Virus record (IMG/VR): IMGVR_UViG_3300037501_000255
Direction: 5' to 3' (one strand)
DNA from: a virus
Taxonomy: Duplodnaviria > Caudoviricetes
Length of the DNA stretch: 64,000 nucleotides
Shown here: piece after piece, positions 9,453 to 59,761 of the stretch
Layout: every line of letters starts with the position of its first letter
Position numbering within the stretch: the first letter of the stretch is position 1
Translations under genes and position numbers: made by a program
The notes under the pieces: model-generated
The model's database searches: none
What the model was told of the DNA's origin: nothing
Seen by the model: only the letters and a program-made list of their open reading frames with translations

Positions 9453-11924
9453 CTAGCATTTAGACGAACCGCAATCCTTGCATGTTAAACACCCTTCGGC
9501 GTACATGACATTCTTTGAGCCGCAGTCTTTGCACTTAACGCCGGTTGTCGCACCATCGGCAATATATTTTTTAAGCACCCGAGAAAGAACCTTATTGATG
9601 TCAGTTATATTTCCATCTTTATTCAACTGAGCCACAACAAATTCAACGTTGACCCCGTGACGCAAGGACATTGAGATCATTCTAGTTGCCCAGGCTGACT
9701 CTGGATTATCGAATGTATTGACGATATTCTTAACAACAAGCTCCTCCTCTCCGTCTGGAAGATGCAGGCTGTATGTTCCATGCTTGATCTTTTTAATGAA
9801 GCCACCCTTTAACTTGGAGGGCAGTATCAGATTCTCTGCTGCGCCAGCAAAGATTTCATATGGCTTACCGTTCATGAGTCCAACAAGAATGACCCATTTG
9901 ATGCCCTTTACTGTTACATGATGTATCTCGCACGGCAGTGTTTCAGGCCGCTTCGGGGCATGTGTTGGCTGAATTTCTGTTGGTCGACCATCAGAGTCGG
10001 TTTTGGGGCCGACATCTGCGGCAACAAGAACTCCGCTCCTGCAGCTATCGCGATAAACAGTAATCCCCTTGCAACCAGACTTCCAGCCTCTACGGTAAAC
10101 CCTGTCAACATCAGCCTTAGATGCGCTATTTGGAAGATTAGTCGTCTTGGAAATAGCATGGCATACCCATTTCTGCGCCGCAGCCTGCAGATCAACTGCA
10201 GCCTCCCAGTCAATCTCGTTTGCTGTCGCCTTGTTGTACGGGCTCTGCTCTACATCGGATTTGCCAGTAATCTCCATCCATTTCGTTACACCGTGATGAT
10301 ATACGGTATACTCTTGCCACTTATCTCCCATATGATCTACAAAATCAACTCGCGCATCCTTATCATTAGGATTGATCTTCTTACGACGCTTGTAGTGAGT
10401 CATAAATACCGGCTCGATACCGCTAGTCGTCTGGGTTAGGGTAGATACAGAGCCTGTGGGAGCGGTGGTTGTGAGTGCTATATTTCTACGGCCGTGCTTG
10501 AGGTACAACTTGTGTAGCTCAGGGTCTGCATCCCAAATTCTTTGCAGGAATTTATGCCCCTTCTCTTTTTTAAGGTTAAAAATCGGGAATGCACCACGCT
10601 CACGAGCCATGATTACACTGGAGCGGTATGCTCCCAGGGCCATAGTCATATATATGGATTCTACCGCAGCAATACTCGCATCTGAGCCGTAGCGTAAGCC
10701 GAGCGCTGCAACCGTATCGCCGATAGCTGTTACCCCAAGACCGGTACGACGGCCATTTATAGCTGCAGTCCGGATACGCTGCCAAAGCACACGCTCGATC
10801 AGCTTTACCTCTTCGGGCTCTGGATCTGTATCAATTTTAGCAAGCACTTTATCTACTTGTTCAATTTCTAAATCAATCAAGTCATCCATAAGACGCTGTG
10901 CCTTCTCAGCGTCGGACTTGAATGCTTCAAAATCGAAGCTTGCCTGTTTAGTAAATGGATTTTTGACATATGAAAAGGTGTTTAGAATCATCAGACGGCA
11001 TGAATCATATTCAGACAGAATTATTTCGCCACATGGATTTGTACTCTTCGAACCAAAGCCTTCCTCGGTATATACGTCGGCAGGCGTATTCTCAAGTGCG
11101 GTATCCCAAAATAAACATCCTGGCTCAGCACTCGCATGCGCAGCTTCAACGAATTCATCCCAAATCTGCTTAGCATCTACCATTTCCTCAATAATATGCT
11201 TGGCATCTTTAGCTACAGGAAATCGTAGCTGCACTTGTGTGCCAGCCTCAACAGCGGAAAGAAATTCATCGCTCCAGCGAACAGATATGTTGGCACCAGT
11301 TACCTTTTTAAGGTCTCTCTTGATATTTATAAAGGTTCGAATCTCTGGATGGTGGCAGTTAATTGTTAGCATCAGAGCGCCACGTCGACCGCCCTGAGCG
11401 ACCTCGCGGCAAGTGTTAGAGAACCGCTCCATAAATACAGCAATGCCATCAGTTGTCCCTGCCGCATTTTGTGTAGTGAGGCCCTTGGGGCGAATAGTTG
11501 AGATATCGAAACCTACACCACCTCGCCTCTTCATAATCTGAGCTTCTTGCTGATCTGTGAACAACAGACCGCCGTAGGAGTCTGACGGTGCGGGGATAAC
11601 AAAACAATTGCTTGCAGACTGTAATTTATATGGATTCCCCAATGCACTCATTGGGGAGCCTTGGGGCACAACACGCCTAAATTCTTTGAAGAGTTCAAAA
11701 ATCTCATCTTCACTCATGGGATTAGGATACTTTGCCTCAATTCTGGCAAATTCCTTAGCCAGCCTACGGTGCATATCATGAGGAGTTGCTTCAAGCAGCC
11801 TACCATCATTATCACGCAATGCGTATTTGTTTATGAAAACTGATGCGGCTAGTTCATCGCCGCCAAAATAATTCTTAGATAATTGCATTGCCTCTTCAAC
11901 TGAAACGACCATGTTGCTCTCCAT
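9453..11924 (-). CDS. nrdJ: Class II (adenosylcobalamin-dependent) ribonucleotide reductase with TSCPD-like and Zn-ribbon C-terminus
   Basis: SNCF, RRGALM, NPCGEIIL, RRTGLGV, TTAPTGSVS, KGITVYRD. C-terminus CKDCGS...CLTCKDCGSSKC. No intein seen, and no beta-subunit gene nearby. Confidence 0.93.
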   Translation of the reverse strand: MESNMVVSVEEAMQLSKNYFGGDELAASVFINKYALRDNDGRLLEATPHDMHRRLAKEFARIEAKYPNPMSEDEIFELFKEFRRVVPQGSPMSALGNPYKLQSASNCFVIPAPSDSYGGLLFTDQQEAQIMKRRGGVGFDISTIRPKGLTTQNAAGTTDGIAVFMERFSNTCREVAQGGRRGALMLTINCHHPEIRTFINIKRDLKKVTGANISVRWSDEFLSAVEAGTQVQLRFPVAKDAKHIIEEMVDAKQIWDEFVEAAHASAEPGCLFWDTALENTPADVYTEEGFGSKSTNPCGEIILSEYDSCRLMILNTFSYVKNPFTKQASFDFEAFKSDAEKAQRLMDDLIDLEIEQVDKVLAKIDTDPEPEEVKLIERVLWQRIRTAAINGRRTGLGVTAIGDTVAALGLRYGSDASIAAVESIYMTMALGAYRSSVIMARERGAFPIFNLKKEKGHKFLQRIWDADPELHKLYLKHGRRNIALTTTAPTGSVSTLTQTTSGIEPVFMTHYKRRKKINPNDKDARVDFVDHMGDKWQEYTVYHHGVTKWMEITGKSDVEQSPYNKATANEIDWEAAVDLQAAAQKWVCHAISKTTNLPNSASKADVDRVYRRGWKSGCKGITVYRDSCRSGVLVAADVGPKTDSDGRPTEIQPTHAPKRPETLPCEIHHVTVKGIKWVILVGLMNGKPYEIFAGAAENLILPSKLKGGFIKKIKHGTYSLHLPDGEEELVVKNIVNTFDNPESAWATRMISMSLRHGVNVEFVVAQLNKDGNITDINKVLSRVLKKYIADGATTGVKCKDCGSKNVMYAEGCLTCKDCGSSKC

Positions 11925-12415
11925 TACAAATCAACTTCCTGTAATTCATTCATTGCGTTCAAAACTTGTCTGCCGGTACGCAGAGCGTATTTGATAGTGT
12001 TATATGTACCACCGCTTTTGCGCCCTTCCCAAAAACATATCATTATGTGGGATTTGTCGACTATCTGGCGATCCCTAATGTGATAATTCGCAGGCCTATA
12101 GACCTTTCCTACAATACTGGTTGACTTCGCTCTCAGTGCATGTGATAAAAGAAGCTCGGCTTCCTCTCTAGTCCAAAATTTGCCTTGAATATCTGCCGGA
12201 AATGGCAGAAAGAGATTGTACGAGATATTCTTCTCAATGCAGGCCTGCGCTACCCACATGTCCGCACCAATGCAGCCGCCAAGATTAAATTCTGCATTGT
12301 GAAAAGTGTGAGCGCAATACTCAACAAGGAGATTTGCTATCTCCTTGGCGTACTCGACATTTGCAAATCCTGTCGGTCTATGCCCCGTCACACCTATCTG
12401 TGGTACAAACATCAT
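11924..12415 (-). CDS. SLOG-superfamily (YspA/DUF1273-like) protein
   Basis: IGVTGHRP, GGCIGADMW, RDRQIVDKS, FWEGRKSGGTYNTIKYA. Confidence 0.8.
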   Translation of the reverse strand: MMFVPQIGVTGHRPTGFANVEYAKEIANLLVEYCAHTFHNAEFNLGGCIGADMWVAQACIEKNISYNLFLPFPADIQGKFWTREEAELLLSHALRAKSTSIVGKVYRPANYHIRDRQIVDKSHIMICFWEGRKSGGTYNTIKYALRTGRQVLNAMNELQEVDL

Positions 12416-13018
12416 TTACCTTTTCATGGCTGCAGGTACTGCCCCGTTAGTCTTTTGCTTCTGCTGGCGCAGTTTTGGCCGTAGAATGCTCAGTAATCCG
12501 GCAGTTCCAAACGCAGTAAGTGCTACTGCGAATAGATCAGCATTCGACCCATCACTTTTTTCCTCCGATTGAACCCCGCCATCAGCTATACTCAAGACAG
12601 TAGTCTGGCCATCTCTAGCTATGAAGATTGGAGAATTAGTAGCGGGGTTATCGTTTATGAGCCGAGCTGAATGGAGCATTTCATGTTCGTATATGGTGTC
12701 AACATGCATGCCGTCTCTCCAGTATTGATGTACGCCTTGCACTGTATCAATTACAGCGGGGCCATCCGTGCGGTGATATTTTCCGTTAACTACCCAGGCC
12801 ATTGAACCATCGGCAAAGAAGATGGCGGGGCCGCTATCGCTGTGGATTGTGAGCTGCAGGTCTCGCTGATAATAATCAAAGTACAGAATGCCATCACTGG
12901 AGAGAAGAATTTGCTCTCCTCCAGTGTTCGCGTAGTCGAAATATATGTGAAAGGGGCGGTCTGACCTGACAAGGCGAATTTGAGAAAGAGAACGCTCGTC
13001 AATCGTCGGGCTCACCAT
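12416..13018 (-). CDS. HRxDGPA-repeat protein with C-terminal membrane anchor (family member 1)
   Basis: HSDSGPA and HRTDGPA repeats. C-terminus LFAVALTAFGTAGLLSIL followed by RPKLRQQKQK. Confidence 0.75.
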   Translation of the reverse strand: MVSPTIDERSLSQIRLVRSDRPFHIYFDYANTGGEQILLSSDGILYFDYYQRDLQLTIHSDSGPAIFFADGSMAWVVNGKYHRTDGPAVIDTVQGVHQYWRDGMHVDTIYEHEMLHSARLINDNPATNSPIFIARDGQTTVLSIADGGVQSEEKSDGSNADLFAVALTAFGTAGLLSILRPKLRQQKQKTNGAVPAAMKR

Positions 13019-13304
13019 ATGTATCTCTTACCTGTTGTTCGCCAAATATATTATCTAACGTTTTGGAATCCTCGTTTAAAGCCTCTTTGCCTATCTGGGC
13101 ATACATCTCTTGTAACTCAGGATTCATCTTTTTCTGCACATATTCAATTGTATTAGCATATTGCACATCAACGCGAAATTTGCTGAAAATTTTACAGTAA
13201 TTGTTTGATCCACAGGCCGGGCATGCTGGATTTACTCCGCCCATATATACAAAATGCTCCTTCTTAAACTCACAATCCTTACATCGAAAATCAAAGAGCG
13301 GCAT
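12999..13304 (-). CDS. FmdB-family zinc-ribbon protein
   Basis: MPLFDFRCKDC...CPACGS. Confidence 0.85.
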   Translation of the reverse strand: MPLFDFRCKDCEFKKEHFVYMGGVNPACPACGSNNYCKIFSKFRVDVQYANTIEYVQKKMNPELQEMYAQIGKEALNEDSKTLDNIFGEQQVRDTYGEPDD

Positions 13305-15546
13305 GTGTTACCTCGCGATTTCGTACTTCCTGTTTCTTTGCGGAGGAGGGTTTTGCTGCTCCGGATAGATAAGAGACCAATGCAGCTATTCCTAAGGCGC
13401 CAATGGCTGTAACCCATGAGCTGCTATCATCAGTGTTGGCCACAGCCTCATCTTGCTCAGTCACCTCATTCGCGTCCAGCACAAAGGCATACTGTATCGG
13501 TATAGCGGGGGTGCCCTGTAACGATACACGCAGTACTCCCGGATCTTCTGAATCTCTCTCGACCTTCACATCCGGTTCGTTGTCAAGATCTTTTAGAATA
13601 TTCTCTATTCTTTTTTTAACACTATCTATATCAATATGCTTAATATCGTTACCGATATACCTACTCATGCTTTCCTTCAGAAGTTGCTTGACGCGCGCCT
13701 CCTGCTCTTCTGGGCTTAAGTGATCTACTTTGAATTGCATTTCTAGTTGTTCCATAGCCTCCTCAACCTCTTCGGCCGTAAAGAATGGAGCCTCAGAATT
13801 ATGCGCAGCAGTGTGGGTCGTCGCCGAGCGAAGCGCCTCTTCACGCACGGCGCGTTCGTGCATTCTGCGGACACTAGCCGCTACCGACTCACCTGTACCA
13901 CCATCGTCCTCGGCGGCATCCCTAATGGCTGAACGATCGTCTATTAAATTATTAGATGCGATACCTTTTAGGTAAAAAATTTTTGAATTAACTAGATAGT
14001 TGCCAATAACAGATATTTGGCTGTTATCTTCGACCTCAATAAAAATTGTTGCATCTCTGATGATGCAATTGGCCAGCTCCACATCTCTAGTTGACTTTAT
14101 TTTGAGCGTCCCTCCGGTAATCTCGGCATCTGCTATACCTAGAGGTGTAAGCTCCCCGCGCAGGACTGCAGTTCCCGTCGCGCTAACTGTCATTCCGCCA
14201 AGAGATAACATGCGCATACTCATCATATCGGCGCTATTTTGAGGGGTTTCGGCTATTTTTATACCTTCACGATAGAATTCATACTGATTTACAGGTTTTA
14301 CATTGTATGTCTTAATCTTATAGAAAAACTTGTTATCCGGACACGGGACGCTCTTCAGAAGGTGATGGGTTGACTGTTCAAGGCCATCTCCGCCACCCCA
14401 CTTAACAGCAGGGAGGCCCAGCTCATCTCTATGTAATTTACCATTGCGCGCCCAAATTACGGTATGATCTCCATTATTCTCGACTAGAATAGCGGCAGGC
14501 AGATCTCCGTCGCGATGCCATACACCATTCTTAAAGAAAATCTGAGTTCCACATGGCAACTTTACAGCAGGCGTAGCGGAATTAAGGCTATGAAGTTTGC
14601 CATCCACATAGCAGTATTCCTCGCCGCCAGGCTTTATGAATGCCGGACCATCTTCGCGATGCATTGCACCGTTTTTGTAATATATTTTCGTACCATCTGT
14701 AAGCTCTATTGCAGGACCATCATCGCGATGTTTTATAGTCGTACCTGCCACATACCAAAAACGATTTCCCTGTAAATCTTGAAGACAATAGCCACGCTCG
14801 TCATCGTGCACTACAGTCGCTTCAAGTCTAGTAGCCATGAAATGCGCAATTGATGCCCGATTCTGGCCATCAGCCGAGATTCCTCTTGAAAAGATTGTTT
14901 TTGGTTGCTCACTTGCCCTGCCTCTGTGATAATATAATGTTTCGTCTCCATTTATTACAGCTGGCCCATCTTCGCGGTGTATACGACCGTGCTGTACCCA
15001 AATAGACGTTCCACCGGGAAGCGTGATTGCCGGGCCATCCGTTCGATGAATATGACCATTTTGTATATATACTGACGTACCGTCATCAAATTCAAGAGCT
15101 GGAGCTCCATCGCGATGAGGTACTCCATTCTCACACCAGCACGTATACTTGATGTTAGTGTCCGGAATCAACATCTCTACTGCCGGTCCATCCGTGCGGT
15201 GCAGCACTCCAGTCTTGAAATACATTTTAGAATGATCGGTGACTAACGCAGGGCCGTCTGTCCTGTGCAAATTTCCATACTGATACCAAAATTCGTGGCC
15301 ATCGGCGTTTATCATGGCAGGGCCAGATTTTCTATGCAAAAGGTGCGAGTCTTGTAGGCGATACTCGGTTGTATTATCAGAGGCTGTCTTTTCCAGGACG
15401 ACCTCCGTCGCATCTTCTACATCAAACTTACCGAGAAATGTAACAATATCCTCTCCGGCAAGCGAGCGTGGTGGAGAGGCCAGCGTGCTTAAAATTCCAC
15501 GTATGCTGTCTACTACAGCATTGTATTTATCTTTGTTTAATGACAT
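13291..15546 (-). CDS. HRxDGPA-repeat protein with a tail-sheath C-terminal-like domain and a C-terminal membrane anchor (family member 2)
   Basis: About 11 H-R-x-D-G-P-A-type repeats and a short beta-solenoid. Segment 13480-13701 aligns with the C-terminus of the sheath. Anchor WVTAIGALGIAALVSYL followed by a basic tail. Confidence 0.75.
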   Translation of the reverse strand: MSLNKDKYNAVVDSIRGILSTLASPPRSLAGEDIVTFLGKFDVEDATEVVLEKTASDNTTEYRLQDSHLLHRKSGPAMINADGHEFWYQYGNLHRTDGPALVTDHSKMYFKTGVLHRTDGPAVEMLIPDTNIKYTCWCENGVPHRDGAPALEFDDGTSVYIQNGHIHRTDGPAITLPGGTSIWVQHGRIHREDGPAVINGDETLYYHRGRASEQPKTIFSRGISADGQNRASIAHFMATRLEATVVHDDERGYCLQDLQGNRFWYVAGTTIKHRDDGPAIELTDGTKIYYKNGAMHREDGPAFIKPGGEEYCYVDGKLHSLNSATPAVKLPCGTQIFFKNGVWHRDGDLPAAILVENNGDHTVIWARNGKLHRDELGLPAVKWGGGDGLEQSTHHLLKSVPCPDNKFFYKIKTYNVKPVNQYEFYREGIKIAETPQNSADMMSMRMLSLGGMTVSATGTAVLRGELTPLGIADAEITGGTLKIKSTRDVELANCIIRDATIFIEVEDNSQISVIGNYLVNSKIFYLKGIASNNLIDDRSAIRDAAEDDGGTGESVAASVRRMHERAVREEALRSATTHTAAHNSEAPFFTAEEVEEAMEQLEMQFKVDHLSPEEQEARVKQLLKESMSRYIGNDIKHIDIDSVKKRIENILKDLDNEPDVKVERDSEDPGVLRVSLQGTPAIPIQYAFVLDANEVTEQDEAVANTDDSSSWVTAIGALGIAALVSYLSGAAKPSSAKKQEVRNREVTHAAL
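14400..15345 (-). repeat. Protein-level array of about 22-aa [LI]HRxDGPA repeats (MORN-variant/YwqK-like beta-hairpins) in two blocks (6 and 5)
   Basis: HRKSGPA, HRTDGPA x3, HRDGAPA, HREDGPA x2, HRDDGPA, HSLNSATPA, HRDGDLPA, HRDELGLPA, read directly from the translation. Confidence 0.85.
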
Positions 15547-16339
15547 GTGCTAATGTGCGCTCCTCTTTCTTCGTCTTTTTCTTTGCCTTAGTAGCGGCAA
15601 TTAGGCCGGCGAAGGCTAGGCAGGCGGCAGCACTTGCAGCTAAGCCGCCTGCCCCCTCTTCTACCACGTCTTCCTCAAGAATATCGTCTGCATCGCTTCT
15701 AATATAGTCCAAAAGTTGCTCAAGTTCCTCGTCTGATGGCATGGTCTCAGAAATACGTATCTTATCTGAGTCGTATTCCCTGCCATTATTATCCACAATC
15801 TGTACAGAGGAGGCCGACATATTCGAACCGATGATAAATATCTCTGGATTTATATCAGAGATTATCATTATCTTTGTGTCCACAAACTGTGAATTTATTA
15901 TAGCAATTCTCTTAAACGATCCACGTATAGTCATTTGGCCAGGATAATCACTTAGCGGAAGAGGAGAGAACTTTACTCTGTTTAGGATAACGTACTGCAG
16001 ATCTGCATCGGCTTCCATATTATACATTAACTCACCCTCATATTCAATGTCATATAGCTCTCGCGGATCTAGCCTGCGCGACATTCTCCTAAAAATCCCA
16101 TTTCCACACATAGCTGCCGCACGTCGATAGTATAGATCACCATTCTCATGACCGGCTAGAGAACTAAGGGCGTGATAAATCTCGAGGTCAGGCTCTTCCG
16201 TCAGTCGAGTAACACTCTTTGTATGGCTATTTAGCAGATATTTGTGCCCATGAACATCATAGAAGATCGAGCCATCAGGATGAAACTCTCGTCTCTCAAT
16301 GCGACACTGAGCTATCTCTTTCTCTGTGGTATAAGGCAT
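15527..16339 (-). CDS. Hypothetical protein with C-terminal membrane anchor (family member 3)
   Basis: Acidic linker, then GGLAASAAACLAFAGLIAA, then TKAKKKTKK. Shares segments with members 2, 4 and 5. Confidence 0.7.
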   Translation of the reverse strand: MPYTTEKEIAQCRIERREFHPDGSIFYDVHGHKYLLNSHTKSVTRLTEEPDLEIYHALSSLAGHENGDLYYRRAAAMCGNGIFRRMSRRLDPRELYDIEYEGELMYNMEADADLQYVILNRVKFSPLPLSDYPGQMTIRGSFKRIAIINSQFVDTKIMIISDINPEIFIIGSNMSASSVQIVDNNGREYDSDKIRISETMPSDEELEQLLDYIRSDADDILEEDVVEEGAGGLAASAAACLAFAGLIAATKAKKKTKKEERTLAHVIKQR

Positions 16340-17541
16340 TCTTTCTCCTCGAGACTCTTCTTTTGTACTACTTTCTTTGTTTTATACATCTTGCTCAACA
16401 TACCTACCCCTGCCGCCAAAGCCAGTGGTAGCGTCCACGAGAAAATTCCTTCCGGACCATCGGACTCTTTTACCTCTGGTTCAACCTTATCCTGCTGCGG
16501 TGAAGAGAATTCCTTGTATTCCATGGGCAGATCTAGTCTGCCAGAATCCTCTATAGCCGACGACAATATATCCACGCTATCTTTTTCTGGTGACATCATT
16601 GTGAAACATGCCGAAGGATCACATTTATGTATTCCGAATGTTGCCAAGTATAGTTCATATGGTATATCCACATCCCCGGCATCCATAACGTATAGCGATG
16701 AGCCCTCTTCTTGTAATGAACCATGAATTGCAGAGAAGTCATCTGTAGTCATAGCATCTCCGGCCAAAGCATGATAGATTCCTATAGCCGCTGCGCGGCG
16801 CTCATATCCGTGCTTAAGAGATGCCAGATCATTGAGCAGCTCGATCACCTGCAGCGAGGTGCCGCGTTCATACGCCTTTGATGATATGATGCTCCTGAAT
16901 ATCCTCCAAGCATCAATGTATGCCTTATATGCGGTGCGGCGGGCAACGACCTCTCTCATTTTAGATCGAGTTTTTTGTTTACTCATAAATTCAGCCTTTG
17001 ATAGTCTTTTGCCATTTAGGTAGTAGCTCGTTCTATTGGTTAAATGATTTATCTTAGCTGGGCCGTCGGGATTATGCAGTTTCCCGTTGTAATAGAACAT
17101 TTCTTCTGTTGTAGATTTGTTTGAGGCAATTACTGCCGGCCCACCAACACGATGGAGTGTCCCATTAATCATCCAAGCCGTATATGAACCGTCACTTGTC
17201 TCTACTGCCGGCCCATCGGTCCTATGCGGTTTGCGTGTTTGGCGACTCTTCCAGATCCGCTGCAGCGCTCCGTTTGGCAGGTAGTGGTAGTGGGGCTCAA
17301 TTTTGACGCGCTCACAATACTGTTCGTACGTTAGTCTTTGACCGTCACAGTAATACAGTTCTTTGCCATCACTAGTGACGATTGCTGGGCCCGACTCGCA
17401 ATGAATAGGTGAGCCACCAACAGTCTCTATGGCAACACCAAAAGTATCGCACGTGCTTTCTACCAAATACTCTTTAACATTACGGACTTTGCCGTCACGT
17501 GTTTTAATCACCGTCATTTTCTGAGCTGACATGTTCCACAC
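16312..17541 (-). CDS. HRxDGPA-repeat protein with C-terminal membrane anchor (family member 4)
   Basis: HCESGPA, HRTDGPA, HRVGGPA, HNPDGPA. Anchor IFSWTLPLALAAGVGML followed by KMYKTKKVVQKK. Confidence 0.75.
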   Translation of the reverse strand: MWNMSAQKMTVIKTRDGKVRNVKEYLVESTCDTFGVAIETVGGSPIHCESGPAIVTSDGKELYYCDGQRLTYEQYCERVKIEPHYHYLPNGALQRIWKSRQTRKPHRTDGPAVETSDGSYTAWMINGTLHRVGGPAVIASNKSTTEEMFYYNGKLHNPDGPAKINHLTNRTSYYLNGKRLSKAEFMSKQKTRSKMREVVARRTAYKAYIDAWRIFRSIISSKAYERGTSLQVIELLNDLASLKHGYERRAAAIGIYHALAGDAMTTDDFSAIHGSLQEEGSSLYVMDAGDVDIPYELYLATFGIHKCDPSACFTMMSPEKDSVDILSSAIEDSGRLDLPMEYKEFSSPQQDKVEPEVKESDGPEGIFSWTLPLALAAGVGMLSKMYKTKKVVQKKSLEEKECLIPQRKR

Positions 17542-22595: not shown

Positions 22596-24059
22596 TTAGC
22601 GGCGCCTATCTAAAATGTCCTTGCGTGAAGCTGAGATTAGCTTGCCAACAGCGCTTTTGTTTTTGCGTATCTTGTCAAGCATCTTATCTGCCGCAGTGGT
22701 AGTTCTATCTTTGTTTAGTCCGACATTCATCTTGTCTGCAGACATCTTCTTCTTGTCTACTAGGGCAGACATGTGGCGATCTGCTTCCTTCTTGAGCGAA
22801 TCAACGCGCTCGCGCGGGAGCCCCATTCCACTGAATATGAAGTAGATCTGTATATCATCATTATCTGATGGAACTTGGTATATGCCCTTGAATACGCGAG
22901 CTGAGCTGTACTCATCTGCAATGAACTTAAATATGAATGAAATCGACTGTGTCGGCACTCTATCTAGCACCTCTTGGCGCGCAGTTACGAGAATGCCGAC
23001 GCTTTGAGCTTCTTTGAGGTCAAAGCCGCTGGCCAATAGACCATGCTCGAGATTGTCGGAGATTGCGGACACTAGAGCAAGGTCATTGCTCTCATACTCA
23101 TCTCTTGAAATACGATTGGAGCCGAAGAGTACGCAATTGCCTGCTTCCAGCAGTGATTTTGCTAAATCCATCGGATCAAGAGATTCTAGATTTGATGGTT
23201 GTGAGGCTAGAGCATTAAACATATGCAGAGGCTCAACAATAGCGTTGTTGGCGACTTTCCAGAATTGAGCAGGGCCCAGATTTGAGTAGGCGAGCTCAAT
23301 TTTGGCATTATCCACGAGAACTAGCGAATTAATTACCTCTTTCGAGGCCATGTCCGCCATCTCGGATAGCACCTGTACAGCATTGAATTTAGACTGACTG
23401 TCGTCCGTTGAGCCGGGCAGTACCAGCATTACTATTACTGGCTTTCCAAATGTCGCAAGCAGGCTTGCAATTGTACTGGCGCTTCCTGCGCCGGTACCGC
23501 CGCCAGCCGATGCACACAATACAAGTACGTCAGCCTCTGCAATATGCTCGGTAATGAATGTTTTGACATGTTCAAAGTTGTCTTCTATGGCAGCACGAGC
23601 TACTTCCAAATCCTTACCTGTTCCGCCAAGGGAGTAGTTCATGAAGAATTTGCGACCCTCAGGAATTTCCAGCAGCTCAAGATCCTGCTTTGCGGTATTT
23701 ACAGCGCAAACGTCGTACCCAAGGTCATAAAAGACCTTGGCTAACTTGCCGCCGGCCTGACCGGAGCCGATTACACCAAAACGAAGAGACACTCGCCTCT
23801 CAACTGTTTTTGGCTTTGGCTGCTCGGTACCAGAAGACTCGCGCTGGGCCTTCTTTTGCTCTAGGAATTTTTCAAAATCCTGATTTCTAATTGCTTCTTT
23901 TGTTGGGTCTGTCATCTCTGGTCTCCCGTGACTTAATAGTATTTTTAGTTGTTCATTTTCTTTTATTATTTGAGCTTCGGACTTGATGTACGTAGTACGG
24001 GTGTCCTCATCAATTATTACAACTCTAGACGACTTATTTTCACTCATTGCGCGCCTCAT
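22596..24059 (-). CDS. Tubulin/FtsZ-superfamily GTPase
   Basis: FGVIGSGQAGGKLA, AVNTAKQDL, GTGKD, signature AGGGTGAG, LVDN, T7-like SLDPMD. Probable start MSENK at 24047. Confidence 0.92.
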   Translation of the reverse strand: MRRAMSENKSSRVVIIDEDTRTTYIKSEAQIIKENEQLKILLSHGRPEMTDPTKEAIRNQDFEKFLEQKKAQRESSGTEQPKPKTVERRVSLRFGVIGSGQAGGKLAKVFYDLGYDVCAVNTAKQDLELLEIPEGRKFFMNYSLGGTGKDLEVARAAIEDNFEHVKTFITEHIAEADVLVLCASAGGGTGAGSASTIASLLATFGKPVIVMLVLPGSTDDSQSKFNAVQVLSEMADMASKEVINSLVLVDNAKIELAYSNLGPAQFWKVANNAIVEPLHMFNALASQPSNLESLDPMDLAKSLLEAGNCVLFGSNRISRDEYESNDLALVSAISDNLEHGLLASGFDLKEAQSVGILVTARQEVLDRVPTQSISFIFKFIADEYSSARVFKGIYQVPSDNDDIQIYFIFSGMGLPRERVDSLKKEADRHMSALVDKKKMSADKMNVGLNKDRTTTAADKMLDKIRKNKSAVGKLISASRKDILDRRR

Positions 24060-27334: not shown

Positions 27335-28472
27335 TAATCCTCCCTGTTGATTTTGCAAGTGCCAAAATCTTGTCTAGTGCAAGATTCCAGGTATATTGGG
27401 GCGCAGTTTTAGCCATTTCAGGCTTCATCTTAATACACACATCGCTATAATTTTCATAAACATACCGCAACTTCTCGCCAAAATCCACAGGGTCAGGATT
27501 TCCCGTAGTTGCACCTGGGGTTACACCCCAGTATTGCTCTTGCGGAAGAGCTTTTCTTACACCGCAACGCGTAAGTATAGAGTTGGAATCATTTAAGAAA
27601 TCTAGTTGGCCGCCGAAACGGGGGGCTACAACCGGCAAGCCGCAGGAGAGTGCCTCTAAGAAGGGCATCCCCCACCCTTCAGATGCAGTCATAAGCGCAA
27701 ATGCATTGCAGGCCGTATATAGGGATGCCATGTTATCCACTTTCTTATTGACTATACAGATTTCTGGCATCATTTTACCATATTTCTTAGACAATTGATT
27801 TAACTTCGGTCTCAAGTCAACCTCGAAGGGCTTGACTTGCTCTCCATTTTTGAATATTTTAGTTTTAAGAACCAGGCACACATCGTCATCTACAGCAAAT
27901 GTTTTACAAAATACATCTAGTAGGGCAGGCAATTGTTTTCTGTAGTGCGGGGCTGCAACGCATAGAAATTTGAATTTCTTTTGTGTTGGAAGCTCTGCAG
28001 GCGGCGCTGATGGGTTAAATAGACCCAGATCTATTCCGTGATGTACGACGTGTATCTTTTCCGAGGGGCATCCGTTGCGGCGGAACATGTCGGCAACATA
28101 GTTGCTGGATGGAAGCACGAAATCAACTAGGTGGTAGAATTTTTTCCAGCCTGCAGGCATATGACTTGATTCATAGTCGTATAGTGCCATCTTAACTTTT
28201 GATGATGTTAAGAATCTTTGTTGGAAATTCTGTGGTACAGTGAATACTATATCGATATCATATGGTATTCCCTTCCTTATCATATGTCGTTCTGATAGCA
28301 TCGCATCGGAATTCCTCTTTTCATTCCAATACATCATCCCATTAGTACCATTTGTTGATATGAAATCTACCGCATGACCGCGAAGCTCCGCAGCGTGCAG
28401 TAATTCCTCCATAACCACAGACCATGATAGGTCTGCGGCTCCCCAGGTAAAACTTCGTATCCTCATTGTCAC
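27306..28472 (-). CDS. Glycosyltransferase family 4 (GT-B fold)
   Basis: HVVHHGID, KFKFLCV, EGWGMPFLEALSCGLPVV (EX7E motif). Confidence 0.92.
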   Translation of the reverse strand: MTMRIRSFTWGAADLSWSVVMEELLHAAELRGHAVDFISTNGTNGMMYWNEKRNSDAMLSERHMIRKGIPYDIDIVFTVPQNFQQRFLTSSKVKMALYDYESSHMPAGWKKFYHLVDFVLPSSNYVADMFRRNGCPSEKIHVVHHGIDLGLFNPSAPPAELPTQKKFKFLCVAAPHYRKQLPALLDVFCKTFAVDDDVCLVLKTKIFKNGEQVKPFEVDLRPKLNQLSKKYGKMMPEICIVNKKVDNMASLYTACNAFALMTASEGWGMPFLEALSCGLPVVAPRFGGQLDFLNDSNSILTRCGVRKALPQEQYWGVTPGATTGNPDPVDFGEKLRYVYENYSDVCIKMKPEMAKTAPQYTWNLALDKILALAKSTGRIIEEEDSQKT

Positions 28473-28954
28473 CTATTCTTGACAGTTGCTTGGTGTTGAT
28501 GTTCGCTGAGCTTCATAGCTGGTTTCTGCTTCTTTTGGACCTTTTGTTTTTTATTATTCGATCCAAGCAGTGAGGCCAGGCCTGCGATAGTTACGCATGC
28601 AATGGCTAGGCGTGCAATGCTTTCCGTGGCTGGGGTACTATCACTATCCTCTCTGGGCGACAGGTCGTCTTCTGACATATCTAGGACGGAGTAAAGCATA
28701 ACCTCGGCGCCCGCGCGGCGGGCCTCTTCTATGAATTCCTGCTGCAAATGCAACGTATATTCGTCTGTATATAGCTCTCTTGGATCCCACATTGCAATGA
28801 TGAACTTGGAGATTTCCTCTCCGAATGCGCCAGCATGTACATCCAATTTTACTGAACGAATGCCTCCGACCATATAGCCGTTATAGTGCACACTCGTCTT
28901 GCCCATAGAAGCATCTAGCGCCATTTTAATCTCGATATTATTGCCCAGCTTCAT
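28469..28954 (-). CDS. Hypothetical protein with C-terminal membrane anchor (family member 5, detached from the array)
   Basis: IARLAIACVTIAGLASLLG followed by NNKKQKVQKKQK. Shares DPRELYxxEY with member 3. Confidence 0.7.
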   Translation of the reverse strand: MKLGNNIEIKMALDASMGKTSVHYNGYMVGGIRSVKLDVHAGAFGEEISKFIIAMWDPRELYTDEYTLHLQQEFIEEARRAGAEVMLYSVLDMSEDDLSPREDSDSTPATESIARLAIACVTIAGLASLLGSNNKKQKVQKKQKPAMKLSEHQHQATVKNR

Positions 28955-41561: not shown

Positions 41562-41993
41562 CTATATCTGTATATCAAAGACTTCACGGATAACGCTTCC
41601 CTTTTTCGTTGTGACATCAATAACAATGTTATATTGCCGTGCATCATAAAGACTTCGCTGTACCTTTACATTCAATATTTGACTTAGCTGCTCATTTGGC
41701 GTTAGGTACTGTCCGTCTTTCAGCTGTAGTGCCTGGAGTTTCATCAAATTCGTCAAACAGAAATTTACAGCATCAGCTACCTCTGTTTCTAGAATATTAA
41801 ATGGCATTGCTTTGCCGATCACTCTGTCCCCCAACGGGCTCCCATACCACGGATTAAGTGCGGAGCTGCCTTGAGAGGTTAGAAGTATCTTTACGATATC
41901 TTGTTTTAGCTTGTCTTCATTGAAGATACGCTGAAGGGCGCCGTCGGAGCCGAAGCTGAAAGAGCCGTTGACTAGTTTAAGATCAAATGACAT
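41562..41993 (-). CDS. gp25/GPW-like baseplate protein
   Basis: LKQDIVKILLTSQGS..LNPWYGS; size and position also fit. Confidence 0.85.
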   Translation of the reverse strand: MSFDLKLVNGSFSFGSDGALQRIFNEDKLKQDIVKILLTSQGSSALNPWYGSPLGDRVIGKAMPFNILETEVADAVNFCLTNLMKLQALQLKDGQYLTPNEQLSQILNVKVQRSLYDARQYNIVIDVTTKKGSVIREVFDIQI

Positions 41994-56488: not shown

Positions 56489-57169
56489 TCAGCCGCCGCC
56501 GAAAATTGGGGCGTCATTGAGCAGCAGACCAAGTGATGCTGCATCAAGCGTACCTCTACGACCTACGTCAGTTGTGGTTTCAATGTTATAAGCCAGATTG
56601 CCAGCTCCAGGACCACCGAGATAACCGCTAAAGAAGTCGTCTCCGGGTAGGGCGGGGGAAGTAGTGCCGTTAGCGAAGTAGGTTACCACATCCTCAGGAA
56701 TAATAGTAGCTTCTTGAGTGATAATGTATTCGCGTACCTGATAGCTGCCAGAAAGTTGTGTAAACCAGCAATTTTTGTACTCATGTATTACCATGCCTGG
56801 CGAGTTAGCGACGGGAGAGAAGTCGGGTGCTTCGCCGGCTTGCGCATACATTGTATCAAAAACCTTGATGGTGAACGGTATACGCTGTGACTTGATATTA
56901 TGGAATGGACGCCCGAATGCCAACGGTAGGCTGAGGCCGTCAAACGTGATACGTGTAACGGTAAGCTCTACTTCTGGTGCGGAATTTGGCACGACTTCCA
57001 GGACGCCATCGAACCCAACTTCGCTGACACGTTGAACAGTACGATTCTGACGGATCGTCATGTTCTGAATAGCGCCGACCTTCTTGTTATCAACCTCTAC
57101 CAGAATCTGGGTAGACAACGAAGTTGAGATGAATGTCTCAAGCCTCGAATTTGTATTTGGGTAAGCCAT
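56489..57169 (-). CDS. Tail tube protein
   Basis: Follows the sheath. ILVEVDNKKVGAIQNMTIRQNR...EVGFDG..EVVP, and YKNCWFT. Confidence 0.88.
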   Translation of the reverse strand: MAYPNTNSRLETFISTSLSTQILVEVDNKKVGAIQNMTIRQNRTVQRVSEVGFDGVLEVVPNSAPEVELTVTRITFDGLSLPLAFGRPFHNIKSQRIPFTIKVFDTMYAQAGEAPDFSPVANSPGMVIHEYKNCWFTQLSGSYQVREYIITQEATIIPEDVVTYFANGTTSPALPGDDFFSGYLGGPGAGNLAYNIETTTDVGRRGTLDAASLGLLLNDAPIFGGG

Positions 57170-57196: not shown

Positions 57197-59761
57197 TTAG
57201 ATAGTAACAGTAACATCTACGAACACCCAGTTGATTGGCGTGGCCGGCGATATGGTTACGCTGACATCATACTGGCGAGGCTCAATCGGATTTCTCTTAA
57301 CCAGTAGGTTAGAGAATCCGGTGAGCAGACCCTGTGTAACGAGCCCTTCGAGAGTATTCTTAACTGCCGAAGTTATCGATGGTATCGTAGTAGGTCCTGA
57401 TACCGTACCTATGAATGGGGTCACTGCATTGCGAAGTGCGCGGGCTGTGGCGTCACGGATGTGGACGATTGAAATCTCTTCCTCTTCCGGGGCACCAGAC
57501 TGCGTTGTCGTGAGGCCGTGCAGAATCTTACCTCCACCCGCGACAGGCTGAACTACGCAGACGCCCGCATCCGCAAGTTCATCGAGTGTCACCTGACGAT
57601 ACTGGCGATCGCGCAGGATATTGAAGCCTGCCAGAGTTTTGAATGTGACCGGCTGCGCAAAATCAGTCTGCGCAGCTAGGTGACCACCCAAGCATGCAGC
57701 CAGGTAGAAGCCGGGCAGCGTGGTGTTGCTACCATTTATGCTGCGAACAATCTGGTCTGGCGCCATATAGGTAACGCGGTAGGTATTACCAAAAGCCTCA
57801 GTAACCGAGTAGTTGGCTAGGTCTTCGATGTTGCCATCAAGCACCTCTTCCACATCATCACCCTGTATACCTTCTAGCAGACCAATATCTTCTACGGCAG
57901 CATCTTCACGGCCAATTAAATTATCCGGGGTAAGGCCGCTAGTGGCGCCGATTATGAGATTGCGCTCACGAGCATTTACGACGTTAGACATAACCTCGCA
58001 GTGCACTCGGGCGGCCTGGAAGATGTTTGAAATTGTGGCTGACGGAACTGGGACGAGCATCTGCAACTCAACAGTCTCGAGGGCTTCAAGAGCAGAGGTC
58101 CAGTTAGAATCAAAGAAATCTGCGTCCTTTTGATCTACGTAGGTGATACGGAGACCTTTGCCTGCCGTCATATAGTTAAGTACAATGTCATCTGTGAGAC
58201 ACAGGTACGTGCCCTTGTCTGCATTGTCAATTACGCGCCATTCAACATCAGAGAATTCGACGCCGGCAGTGTGCGTGCCAGAGGTGCGCTGAGCGGTAAC
58301 TGTGCTATTGTCGCCATAGCCGTCGCCTACGCTGAGAATATTGTAGGTTGCTGCCAGGGCTGCTGGGGTGATAATCTGAATTTGCTTCAGGGTATCATCT
58401 TCGCCAGCATCAAGGAAATCTACCGAGAAGAATGCAGTATCTGACTGGAACGTGATCGCAGTTGCAGATGTCGTGATCACATAACCGTCGGTGCCGGAAT
58501 CCTCGACTTCGGCAGCTTCAATCATCGTATAGGACTGCGAGAATGGGCCCTGTACGAAGTTTGCATAAGCATTTGCAATTGTGTTATATGATGGATTGTA
58601 AAAGGCCTCTTTTGAAAGCAGAAGTTGCTCTTCGGTGCCATCTGAAGAGACTACGAAGATGTGTACTTCAGTATCTCCATCTGGCTTAGCGCCGAGCGGG
58701 AGTGGGAAGATGCAATCTGTGCTTGCAGTGTTACCTGTAGCGCCCTCAACGTCGACCGTGAGAGGATTGTCCGCTGCTAGCAACTGAGCGCTGGTACGAC
58801 GAGGTACTGGCGGCTTCGCCTGCAATGCAATTAGGCGTGGGGCGCCGTTCTCGAATGCCATCTGGGAGGCTAGTGACAGTGAGTTGGCAACCGACGGATC
58901 GCCGTGTTTTGCGAAGAGGGCTGGGCCATTATCGAAAATTTCGGGATCATTTAGATCTTGCTCTGCAATGTAACGGGCTACGAGATTGTCATTCTTAGCC
59001 AAGACGCCCGAGCCAACCTCAACGGAGAAGCGATCGCCAACATCGAAAGGCACAGCGCCTTCGGAGATGGAGAAGCTCAATAAGCCATTGCTGTAGACTG
59101 CGCCATCAGACTTCCAACGTATTGGATTTCCGTTTGAATCTTTGATGACTCCACTAACAGAACCTGACAATGAAAAGGTGGCCTTGCCTGAAATAACCGC
59201 CCCATATCCATCACGTACTACCGCTATGCAGCGGAGAGTCCAGGTTTCGGCCGGAGCAGCGGTCTCCACCAGGGAGGCAGCCGTCAGATTTGGTTGACCA
59301 TTACCCGCATTTGTGGTTGGGGCAGACCAGTACTGAGGTGAAGCAGTCGTGCCACCTTGGTTAACCAAGTAAGCTTGTTGTAGTTGTATACGACCCGTTG
59401 CGATCTCTACACGAGCATCATAGCGAGCATCGAATGGGTCAGTGTCAATCTGCGCTTCAAGAACACGCAGTGGCGAACCATTCTTAAGGAGGGTAACGCG
59501 ATTTGAAACGAGATTGCTCTTTGAGATTTGAAAGTGGCGACCGTCGGGAGCATTTGAACCAGAGAAGTCGGGATTTACGCCGTCGGAGCCCGAGCCCGTA
59601 GCTGATTCGATCAGAGTTTCCTCGGCCTCACCCTCCCCAACTATGCACAAAAGTCTTGCGCCGGTGTTGCCGGCCACGGAACGAGATAGCGTCTTTGTAC
59701 GTACAAAAACCCTCGGCTGGGTGCGCTGTGGAACGCCTGGGACGATATTTGCCATGAACAA
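57197..59761 (-). CDS. Contractile tail sheath protein with inserted domains
   Basis: N-terminal PRVFVRT. C-terminal LADAGVCVVQP...EISIVHIRD...DVSVTISPATPINWVFV. Likely start MANIV at 59755. Confidence 0.92.
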   Translation of the reverse strand: MFMANIVPGVPQRTQPRVFVRTKTLSRSVAGNTGARLLCIVGEGEAEETLIESATGSGSDGVNPDFSGSNAPDGRHFQISKSNLVSNRVTLLKNGSPLRVLEAQIDTDPFDARYDARVEIATGRIQLQQAYLVNQGGTTASPQYWSAPTTNAGNGQPNLTAASLVETAAPAETWTLRCIAVVRDGYGAVISGKATFSLSGSVSGVIKDSNGNPIRWKSDGAVYSNGLLSFSISEGAVPFDVGDRFSVEVGSGVLAKNDNLVARYIAEQDLNDPEIFDNGPALFAKHGDPSVANSLSLASQMAFENGAPRLIALQAKPPVPRRTSAQLLAADNPLTVDVEGATGNTASTDCIFPLPLGAKPDGDTEVHIFVVSSDGTEEQLLLSKEAFYNPSYNTIANAYANFVQGPFSQSYTMIEAAEVEDSGTDGYVITTSATAITFQSDTAFFSVDFLDAGEDDTLKQIQIITPAALAATYNILSVGDGYGDNSTVTAQRTSGTHTAGVEFSDVEWRVIDNADKGTYLCLTDDIVLNYMTAGKGLRITYVDQKDADFFDSNWTSALEALETVELQMLVPVPSATISNIFQAARVHCEVMSNVVNARERNLIIGATSGLTPDNLIGREDAAVEDIGLLEGIQGDDVEEVLDGNIEDLANYSVTEAFGNTYRVTYMAPDQIVRSINGSNTTLPGFYLAACLGGHLAAQTDFAQPVTFKTLAGFNILRDRQYRQVTLDELADAGVCVVQPVAGGGKILHGLTTTQSGAPEEEEISIVHIRDATARALRNAVTPFIGTVSGPTTIPSITSAVKNTLEGLVTQGLLTGFSNLLVKRNPIEPRQYDVSVTISPATPINWVFVDVTVTI

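Follow-up and report, generated by a model that had tools for sequence, protein, structure and literature searches.

To our knowledge, only two roles of handshake domains have been described, namely as the polymerising core of contractile sheaths and as the baseplate initiator (gp25/TssE). In the sheath, the two-stranded sheet of domain I takes up the N- and C-termini of the subunits of the next disc, and the handshake domain of the initiator does so for the first disc (PMC13433997). The full-length sheath protein of T4 polymerises by itself, giving rise to polysheaths (PMC3004832), and in the T6SS (type VI secretion system) the membrane-bound protein TagA halts the sheaths and holds them (PMC6745524). 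In the literature we found no description of a sheath C-terminal domain in a membrane-anchored protein that is not a sheath, only work on sheaths, initiators and the T6SS.

We describe here a protein that combines such a domain with a predicted membrane anchor. It is the 751-amino-acid product of the minus-strand open reading frame (ORF) 13291..15546 (P0001) in the Caudoviricetes record IMGVR_UViG_3300037501_000255 of IMG/VR. The stretch analysed, called the window hereafter, is 64,000 nucleotides long and forms a portion of this 97-kb record, which derives from a freshwater metagenome; the longest contig carrying the 751-amino-acid protein has 368 kb. What is new here is the architecture and the setting in which a known domain occurs, within a narrow uncultured clade.

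Residues 611-689 are a diverged copy of the sheath C-terminus

Over residues 611-689 (13480..13716, minus strand, as for all parts of the gene given below), the protein carries a diverged copy of the tail-sheath C-terminus (~80 residues) of its own jumbo-phage lineage, which is predicted to fold as helix, helix, beta-hairpin and final strand. The sequence comparisons carry this claim and the predicted fold supports it. The sheath gene of the window lies at 57197..59761 on the minus strand (PHROG 2839, E 1e-12; Pfam Phage_sheath_1C, E 2.7e-4), and its C-terminal domain, the type from which the captured domain derives, comprises residues 764-854 (57200..57472, minus strand). BLASTP of residues 560-751 against this sheath gave 23/92 identities (E 2e-5) in an alignment that reached the sheath C-terminus, and among all 140 window ORFs of at least 80 amino acids the sheath was the best non-self match (BLASTP E 1.9e-4). 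A preliminary description of this DNA, made from its letters, had placed a tail-sheath C-terminal domain just before a membrane anchor in a repeat protein, at 13480-13701, which encode residues 616-689 (EARVKQLL...PIQYAFV); sequence profiles and fold comparison bear it out. The sheath ends as quoted there, the 11 identities given for the ungapped last 30 residues were confirmed by count, and the (Y/F)IG and NxLxxL motifs are both present. The anchor was said to follow about 20 residues later, and the hydrophobic stretch does start at W711, 21 residues past the segment.

When 1.84 billion representatives were searched exhaustively with phmmer, homologues of the C-terminal module turned up in five clusters only (P0125-P0128 and P0130), and word-indexed protein searches added no further family members. 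We built a family profile from these six sequences (the 751-amino-acid protein plus the five clusters) and a sheath profile from 19 sheath C-termini of the lineage. Compared by hhalign, the two matched over 74 columns with a probability of 96.7% and an E value of 3.9e-10; the real pair scored 63, and controls in which either profile was reversed, or columns were shuffled 30 times, scored at most 22. In addition, a hidden Markov model (HMM) of the family, built without any sheath sequence, was used in a six-frame search of 18 related jumbo-phage records (60-480 kb), where it matched in 7 records, every time at the C-terminal end of the sheath gene. With the anchor removed, the same HMM matched 117/120 lineage sheaths at their extreme C-terminus, and on the 140 window ORFs the sheath was its sole match (E 4e-6), the runner-up being the gp25-like initiator with an E value of 0.15. 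Unaided MAFFT likewise aligned the family with the sheaths, and the other family members keep an alternating last strand at the position of the terminal VTVTI of the sheath.

With generic models the resemblance is fainter. The match to Phage_sheath_1C, with which the preliminary description proposed to compare a segment of about 75 residues, stayed below threshold for the 74-residue segment (E 0.072; 13.6 bits, cut-off 26.9), although it lies in register (33-69 on profile positions 58-94), and Foldseek was not significant; the profile of the lineage's own sheaths, by contrast, was matched significantly, as given above. The family profile retrieved no sheath among PDB sequences. Because the domain matches the sheath of its own lineage far better than generic models or PDB sheaths, the sequences point to its capture from that sheath.

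The fold evidence is in agreement with this. An AlphaFold2 (AF2) model made from the six family sequences alone had the order helix-helix-strand-strand-strand, at a low confidence (predicted local distance difference test score, pLDDT, of 44.6). Scanned against 48,161 representative PDB chains without the Foldseek prefilter, its eight best matches were all handshake domains (gp25-like, TssE or sheath C-terminal) with Z scores of 6.6-7.9: the gp25-like 2ia7 (7.9), the sheath of phi812 (7.7), TssE 6gj1_D (7.3), IraD (7.2), which we take to be of gp25-like fold, and the sheaths of phiKZ (7.0), phi-kp24 (6.9), the Anabaena contractile injection system (6.8) and Mu (6.6). A second AF2 model, from family and sheath sequences together, had its two helices and its hairpin at a pLDDT of 70-77 and again placed sheath C-termini first; as this model is partly circular, the fold evidence was taken from the family-only one. 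Since the pLDDT of the models lay at 45-65, Foldseek against the PDB gave no significant match (best E 0.8) and all VIA-align Z scores were below 8, a range that the tool itself flags as common, we consider the fold supportive and not decisive.

These weaker results, namely the sub-threshold Pfam score, the Foldseek and Z values and the low AF2 confidence, would fit a chance resemblance between the segment and the sheath. Such an explanation is nevertheless highly improbable in our estimation, given a profile-profile match whose controls failed, a sheath-free HMM that picks the sheath C-terminus alone out of whole phage genomes and out of the window, and an independent family-only model that ranks handshake domains first among all chains scanned.

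The preliminary description called the domain gp25-like. It is indeed of the handshake type, but over 74 columns it is a sheath-type domain, and only the 27-column beta-hairpin is common to it and the gp25-like initiator. This initiator, of 143 amino acids, is encoded at 41562..41993 on the minus strand (Pfam Sheath_initiator, E 3.7e-5) and is the second bona fide handshake-hairpin protein of the phage. When aligned with 13 orthologues from related records, it matched the sheath profile over the hairpin alone (hhalign E 1.6e-7), and its match to the family, confined to those 27 columns, was weak (hhalign probability 14.8%, E 1.8e-3). The 751-amino-acid protein itself had no match to the Pfam sheath-initiator families PF04965 and PF10934. 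A gp25 origin was rejected in favour of a sheath origin, as the likeness to the initiator is limited to the hairpin. Judged from these alignments, the hairpin is common to three proteins of the phage, and in the anchored protein the C-terminal unit of the sheath is there in full.

As to the tail module itself, the sheath of the window is only distantly related to those of isolated phages, with just ~27% identity to its nearest relatives there (Bacillus phage G and SPO1-like phages). Its Phage_sheath_1C score, 21.4 bits, is below the gathering cut-off of 26.9, and the Pfam sheath N-terminal domains did not match it. One clear match to a tail tube protein was found in the window, at 56489..57169; some related jumbo phages have two adjacent tube paralogues (G001, G002 and G005; loci L114/L126, L115/L127 and L118/L128).

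Architecture, predicted topology and orthologues

From its N-terminus, the protein consists of 62 residues, the HRxDGPA repeats, a solenoid-like region and an acidic helical linker, followed by the sheath-derived domain, a second acidic linker, a hydrophobic helix and a basic tail. The repeats, about 11 and MORN-like, occupy two blocks between residues 63 and 395 (14362..15360); they were listed with a regular expression and found by BLASTP to the paralogues P0004 and P0131. The protein had no Pfam match to MORN (PF02493 and PF07661) at E values up to 10, and P0131 had a marginal one to MORN_2 (E 0.039). Within the family the repeats are confined to the 750-amino-acid forms. The putative beta-solenoid of residues 441-545 (13912..14226; weak Pfam Beta_helix match, E 0.0025; 49% identity to P0125) is seen in the orthologue alignment and is retained by every orthologue, long or short, and the linker after it spans residues 546-610 (13717..13911; 37% identity to P0125). 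In the sheath-derived domain, the hairpin shared with the sheath and the gp25-like initiator comprises residues 659-677 (DVKVERDSEDPGVLRVSLQ; 13516..13572) and contains the family-invariant V-S. The acidic linker of residues 690-710 (13417..13479) was delimited by sequence and alignment, and its first residues align to the last sheath strand in the other family members.

The anchor helix, residues 711-730 (W-VTAIGALGIAALVSYLSGA; 13357..13416), was located by hydrophobicity and by the family alignment. It includes the best hydrophobic 19-mer of the protein (residues 712-730, Kyte-Doolittle 1.74), holds a family-invariant W, G and A and has, with 60% identity to P0125, the highest conservation within the C-terminal module. 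Neither a second hydrophobic stretch nor a signal-like N-terminus was found in the rest of the protein. Because there is a single C-terminal hydrophobic helix and no signal peptide, the domain probably faces the cytoplasm, the compartment in which sheath subunits are produced, and the 710-residue N-terminal part is expected to stay there. The flank before the helix is acidic (net -6) and the tail of residues 731-751 (13294..13356; sequence and family alignment) is basic, with a net charge of +3 that rises to as much as +8 in the paralogues. Whether the helix is a true tail anchor or a re-entrant one, the sheath-like domain would be cytoplasmic. At the extreme C-terminus, the orthologues (P0125, P0126, P0127, P0128 and P0130) conserve the pattern E-[VL]-x-N-A-T-[VLF], which reads EVTHAAL here (13294..13320). 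That these residues past the membrane helix are conserved suggests that the tail has a specific partner, whichever side of the membrane it sits on.

Outside the C-terminal module, matches to the protein were few. The protein had none in PHROGs, NCBIfam or the ESM Atlas, megablast of the locus against isolated phages found nothing, and tblastn of the whole protein against phages matched the HRxDGPA repeats alone (Celeribacter phage P12053L, Atu_ph07 and PA5oct-like phages). No RNA runs holding the locus were found. Three other contigs have orthologues of 750, 258 and 317 amino acids at the corresponding place, in the order dnaB, a ~400-amino-acid gene, a ~260-amino-acid gene, the gene of the 751-amino-acid type, a Zn-ribbon gene, a ~200-amino-acid gene, a ~162-amino-acid gene and the ribonucleotide reductase gene. 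The short orthologues lack the repeats and keep the solenoid, linker, sheath-like domain and anchor. Identity to the 751-amino-acid protein is 47%, 23% and 24%, and for neighbours over the same contigs it is 85% and 79% (DnaB) and 80%, 60% and 72% (Zn-ribbon protein). In the closest pair, with P0125, the sheath-like domain is 42% identical, and the linkers are 14-37% identical. As orthologues of 258-751 amino acids that are 23-47% identical all keep the domain beside the anchor, and as family-invariant residues lie in the hairpin, the alignments show the domain to be under selection.

Genomic setting and anchored paralogues

The gene overlaps its upstream neighbour by 20 nucleotides at its start and the downstream Zn-ribbon gene at its end. 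It belongs to an array on the minus strand (12416..17541), between dnaB and the ribonucleotide reductase gene, which encodes four putatively tail-anchored proteins (12416..13018, 13291..15546, 15527..16339 and 16312..17541) and the Zn-ribbon protein (12999..13304). A fifth anchored protein is encoded at 28469..28954, also on the minus strand. These five window proteins end alike, with an acidic stretch, a ~19-residue helix of Ala, Gly and Leu and a basic tail, and have no signal peptide. In the other four the tails are rich in Lys and Arg, with a net charge of +7 to +8, and their anchors are kept in the orthologues of the three other contigs. The HRxDGPA repeats are common to the 751-amino-acid protein and two of the others (12416..13018 and 16312..17541). 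Comparison of the solenoid-like region of the 751-amino-acid protein (13912..14226) with that of the 270-amino-acid protein (15527..16339) gave an hhalign probability of 33% and an E value of 4.5e-4, against 0.014 for a reversed control. For a tube-like segment considered in the fifth anchored protein, profile comparison gave no support (hhalign probability 0.2%, E 0.32).

From the UvsW-like helicase gene through to that of the reductase, neighbouring genes overlap or abut and therefore look like one operon, whose members also include a DnaC-like ATPase and DnaB. Going by gene position only, the 751-amino-acid protein is probably non-structural. Directly upstream of this operon, a tubulin of the TubZ/PhuZ type is encoded at 22596..24059 on the minus strand (Pfam Tubulin and TubZ-like_C). 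A terminator-like hairpin (22570-22549) separates the tubulin gene from the operon; the promoter and terminator scan as a whole was no better than chance. Between the anchored array and the reductase gene, a 163-amino-acid protein (11924..12415, minus strand) gave weak matches to the YpsA/DprA-like SLOG family (E 6e-4 and 2.5e-3). The reductase gene (9453..11924) is intein-free here and encodes 823 amino acids; its counterparts in two related contigs (L091:9518-13219 and L092:8179-11772), of 1233 and 1197 amino acids, contain an intein with a LAGLIDADG endonuclease. The Zn-ribbon gene is found in another context in one complete genome of more distant relatives.

Candidate functions and comparison with known systems

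By analogy with described handshake proteins, we tentatively propose, at a probability of about 0.4, that the protein is a cytoplasm-facing, membrane-tethered handshake module that engages the arms or ends of sheath subunits. The C-terminal hydrophobic helix would hold the modular protein at the membrane, with its large N-terminal part, including the sheath-like domain, in the cytoplasm and the domain ~20 residues off the membrane surface. There the domain might engage the phage's own sheath protein through beta-strand exchange, either with its hairpin accepting the free arms of sheath subunits or with its last strand filling a free hairpin at a growing end. Sheath polymerisation would as a result be tethered, capped or locally controlled at the membrane, and the protein would be a phage-made functional analogue of TagA/TsmA of the T6SS, built from a piece of sheath. 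The beta-solenoid-like region, together with the HRxDGPA repeats of the long forms, could supply additional binding surfaces. Control of sheath polymerisation is plausible because full-length sheath proteins self-polymerise into polysheaths, and with this property and the TagA/TsmA case a membrane-tethered sheath binder has a rationale as well as a precedent. As far as the sequence tells, a role in which sheath assembly is capped, nucleated or tethered at the membrane is possible. It is more doubtful that a piece of sheath has been turned into a membrane-tethered regulator whose handshake binding controls where, when or whether the phage's own or a competitor's sheaths polymerise, which would make it a third functional class of handshake proteins.

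Several observations weigh against an engagement of sheath subunits. The Arg of the hairpin turn, P-R(-Q), is present in 18/19 sheaths and 14/14 initiators and in 0/6 family members, and because all six lack it, canonical handshake binding is not to be assumed. In addition, the sheath strand ahead of helix 1 is lost in the family through a seven-residue deletion. By the positive-inside rule the acidic flank and the basic tail would keep the tail in the cytoplasm, a poor fit to a classical tail anchor. The gene lies in an apparently single operon with a helicase, a helicase loader and ribonucleotide reductase, apart from the tail genes, and the other four anchored paralogues gave no match to sheath, tube or initiator profiles. 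The gene also shows a much faster evolution than the sheath or the neighbouring genes (47% identity, where DnaB has 85%), and more distant relatives, which have the same sheath family at ~50% sheath identity, lack it. From this absence we conclude that the gene is dispensable for tail assembly as such.

Much of this would also fit a domain that no longer touches the sheath and has been exapted, serving for oligomerisation or as a small spacer in one member of a set of five membrane-tethered scaffolds, which would organise, for instance, the replisome, phage DNA or the phage tubulin at the membrane. We regard this as the main rival, only slightly less likely than an engagement of sheath subunits. 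It accords with the loss of the conserved Arg, the fast evolution, the common acidic-linker, hydrophobic-helix and basic-tail ending of the five proteins, the lack of tail-protein matches in the other four, and the tight operon, just downstream of the TubZ/PhuZ-like tubulin, that also holds the genes of the UvsW-like helicase, DnaC-like ATPase, DnaB and reductase. It accords as well with the anchor helix, with its small-xxx-small spacing, being the most conserved part of the C-terminal module. On the other hand, it is not a mere fragment but the entire sheath C-terminal unit (both helices, hairpin and last strand) that has been kept, the most conserved element in common with the sheath is the hairpin, and position alone ties the protein to replication.

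An improbable alternative is that the protein serves in intracellular conflict, as a dominant-negative or decoy handshake domain directed against host T6SS, tailocins, the tails of induced prophages or co-infecting myophages, or that it occupies a host defence that senses sheaths. We know of no defence system that senses the sheath protein. Fast evolution relative to the neighbours, a patchy and clade-restricted distribution, a mosaic architecture and a probably early or middle expression, with the replication genes, would all suit such a factor; loss of the Arg could yield a binder that does not propagate, and the membrane is where T6SS sheaths start and end (PMC6745524). The domain, however, resembles the sheath of its own phage and not those of T6SS or tailocins, in line with the lack of a PDB sheath match to the family profile, and the presence of such targets in the host of this freshwater-metagenome phage is assumed. 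Another idea, from the preliminary description, is that superinfecting myophages have their tails jammed by the anchored domain, which would take place at the envelope. Only domain identity and the membrane anchor speak for this form of superinfection exclusion, which we consider extremely unlikely: during infection the virion keeps its sheath outside the outer envelope, and only the tip of the tube reaches the inner membrane (PMC3004832), and the N-terminal part of the protein, having no signal peptide, is not expected to be exported.

If the protein does bind the sheath as a membrane-tethered handshake module, it would offer a handle on how myophages avoid polysheaths and on where in the cell tails are built, and it would be a minimal module of natural origin that binds sheaths and could serve to study or block contractile injection systems. 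Otherwise, it remains a clear example of recruitment, in which a fragment of a virion protein has become part of a protein outside the virion.

Among known systems, the closest is the sheath C-terminal domain (PF17482, Phage_sheath_1C), specifically that of the lineage's own sheath, with which the protein shares ~75 homologous residues and, in the predicted fold, the order of elements (a pair of helices, the hairpin of two strands, a last strand), as well as the (Y/F)IG motif, the hairpin pattern V-x-V-x-R...D/E-P...(N/D)-V/I-S/x-V and a P-x-x-P. Unlike a sheath, it has no N-terminal arm and no tube-binding or surface domains, so that the match is confined to the final ~80 residues of the sheath; it has lost the near-invariant Arg-Gln that follows the hairpin Pro, and the strand before helix 1, the domain is not chain-terminal, being followed by the acidic linker, membrane helix and basic tail, and the gene lies among replication genes. 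The initiators gp25, TssE and Afp9 (PF04965 and PF10934) are comparable in that a small stand-alone handshake domain would offer a hairpin to sheath arms without being itself a sheath, but the similarity to them is limited to the 27-column hairpin, and the present protein lacks the conserved Arg, is encoded outside the baseplate operon and is predicted to be membrane-anchored. With the tail-anchored or C-terminally anchored membrane proteins of bacteria and phages it has in common the absence of a signal peptide and one hydrophobic helix within ~40 residues of the C-terminus; in contrast to these, 21-30 residues follow the helix, a long and strongly basic tail that is atypical for a translocated one.

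TagA/TsmA of the T6SS may be a functional analogue only. These bacterial proteins make TssA-like contacts, have no handshake domain derived from a sheath and show no relation in sequence or fold to the phage protein, in which no Pfam match to ImpA_N, the domain that precedes a hydrophobic region in TagA/TsmA, or to VasL was found at E values up to 10. What the two would have in common is a place in the membrane, contact with the end of a contractile sheath and the ability to block its further polymerisation and hold it (PMC6745524). Set beside these systems, a conserved, membrane-anchored third copy of the handshake domain outside the tail module would represent a new use of the domain.

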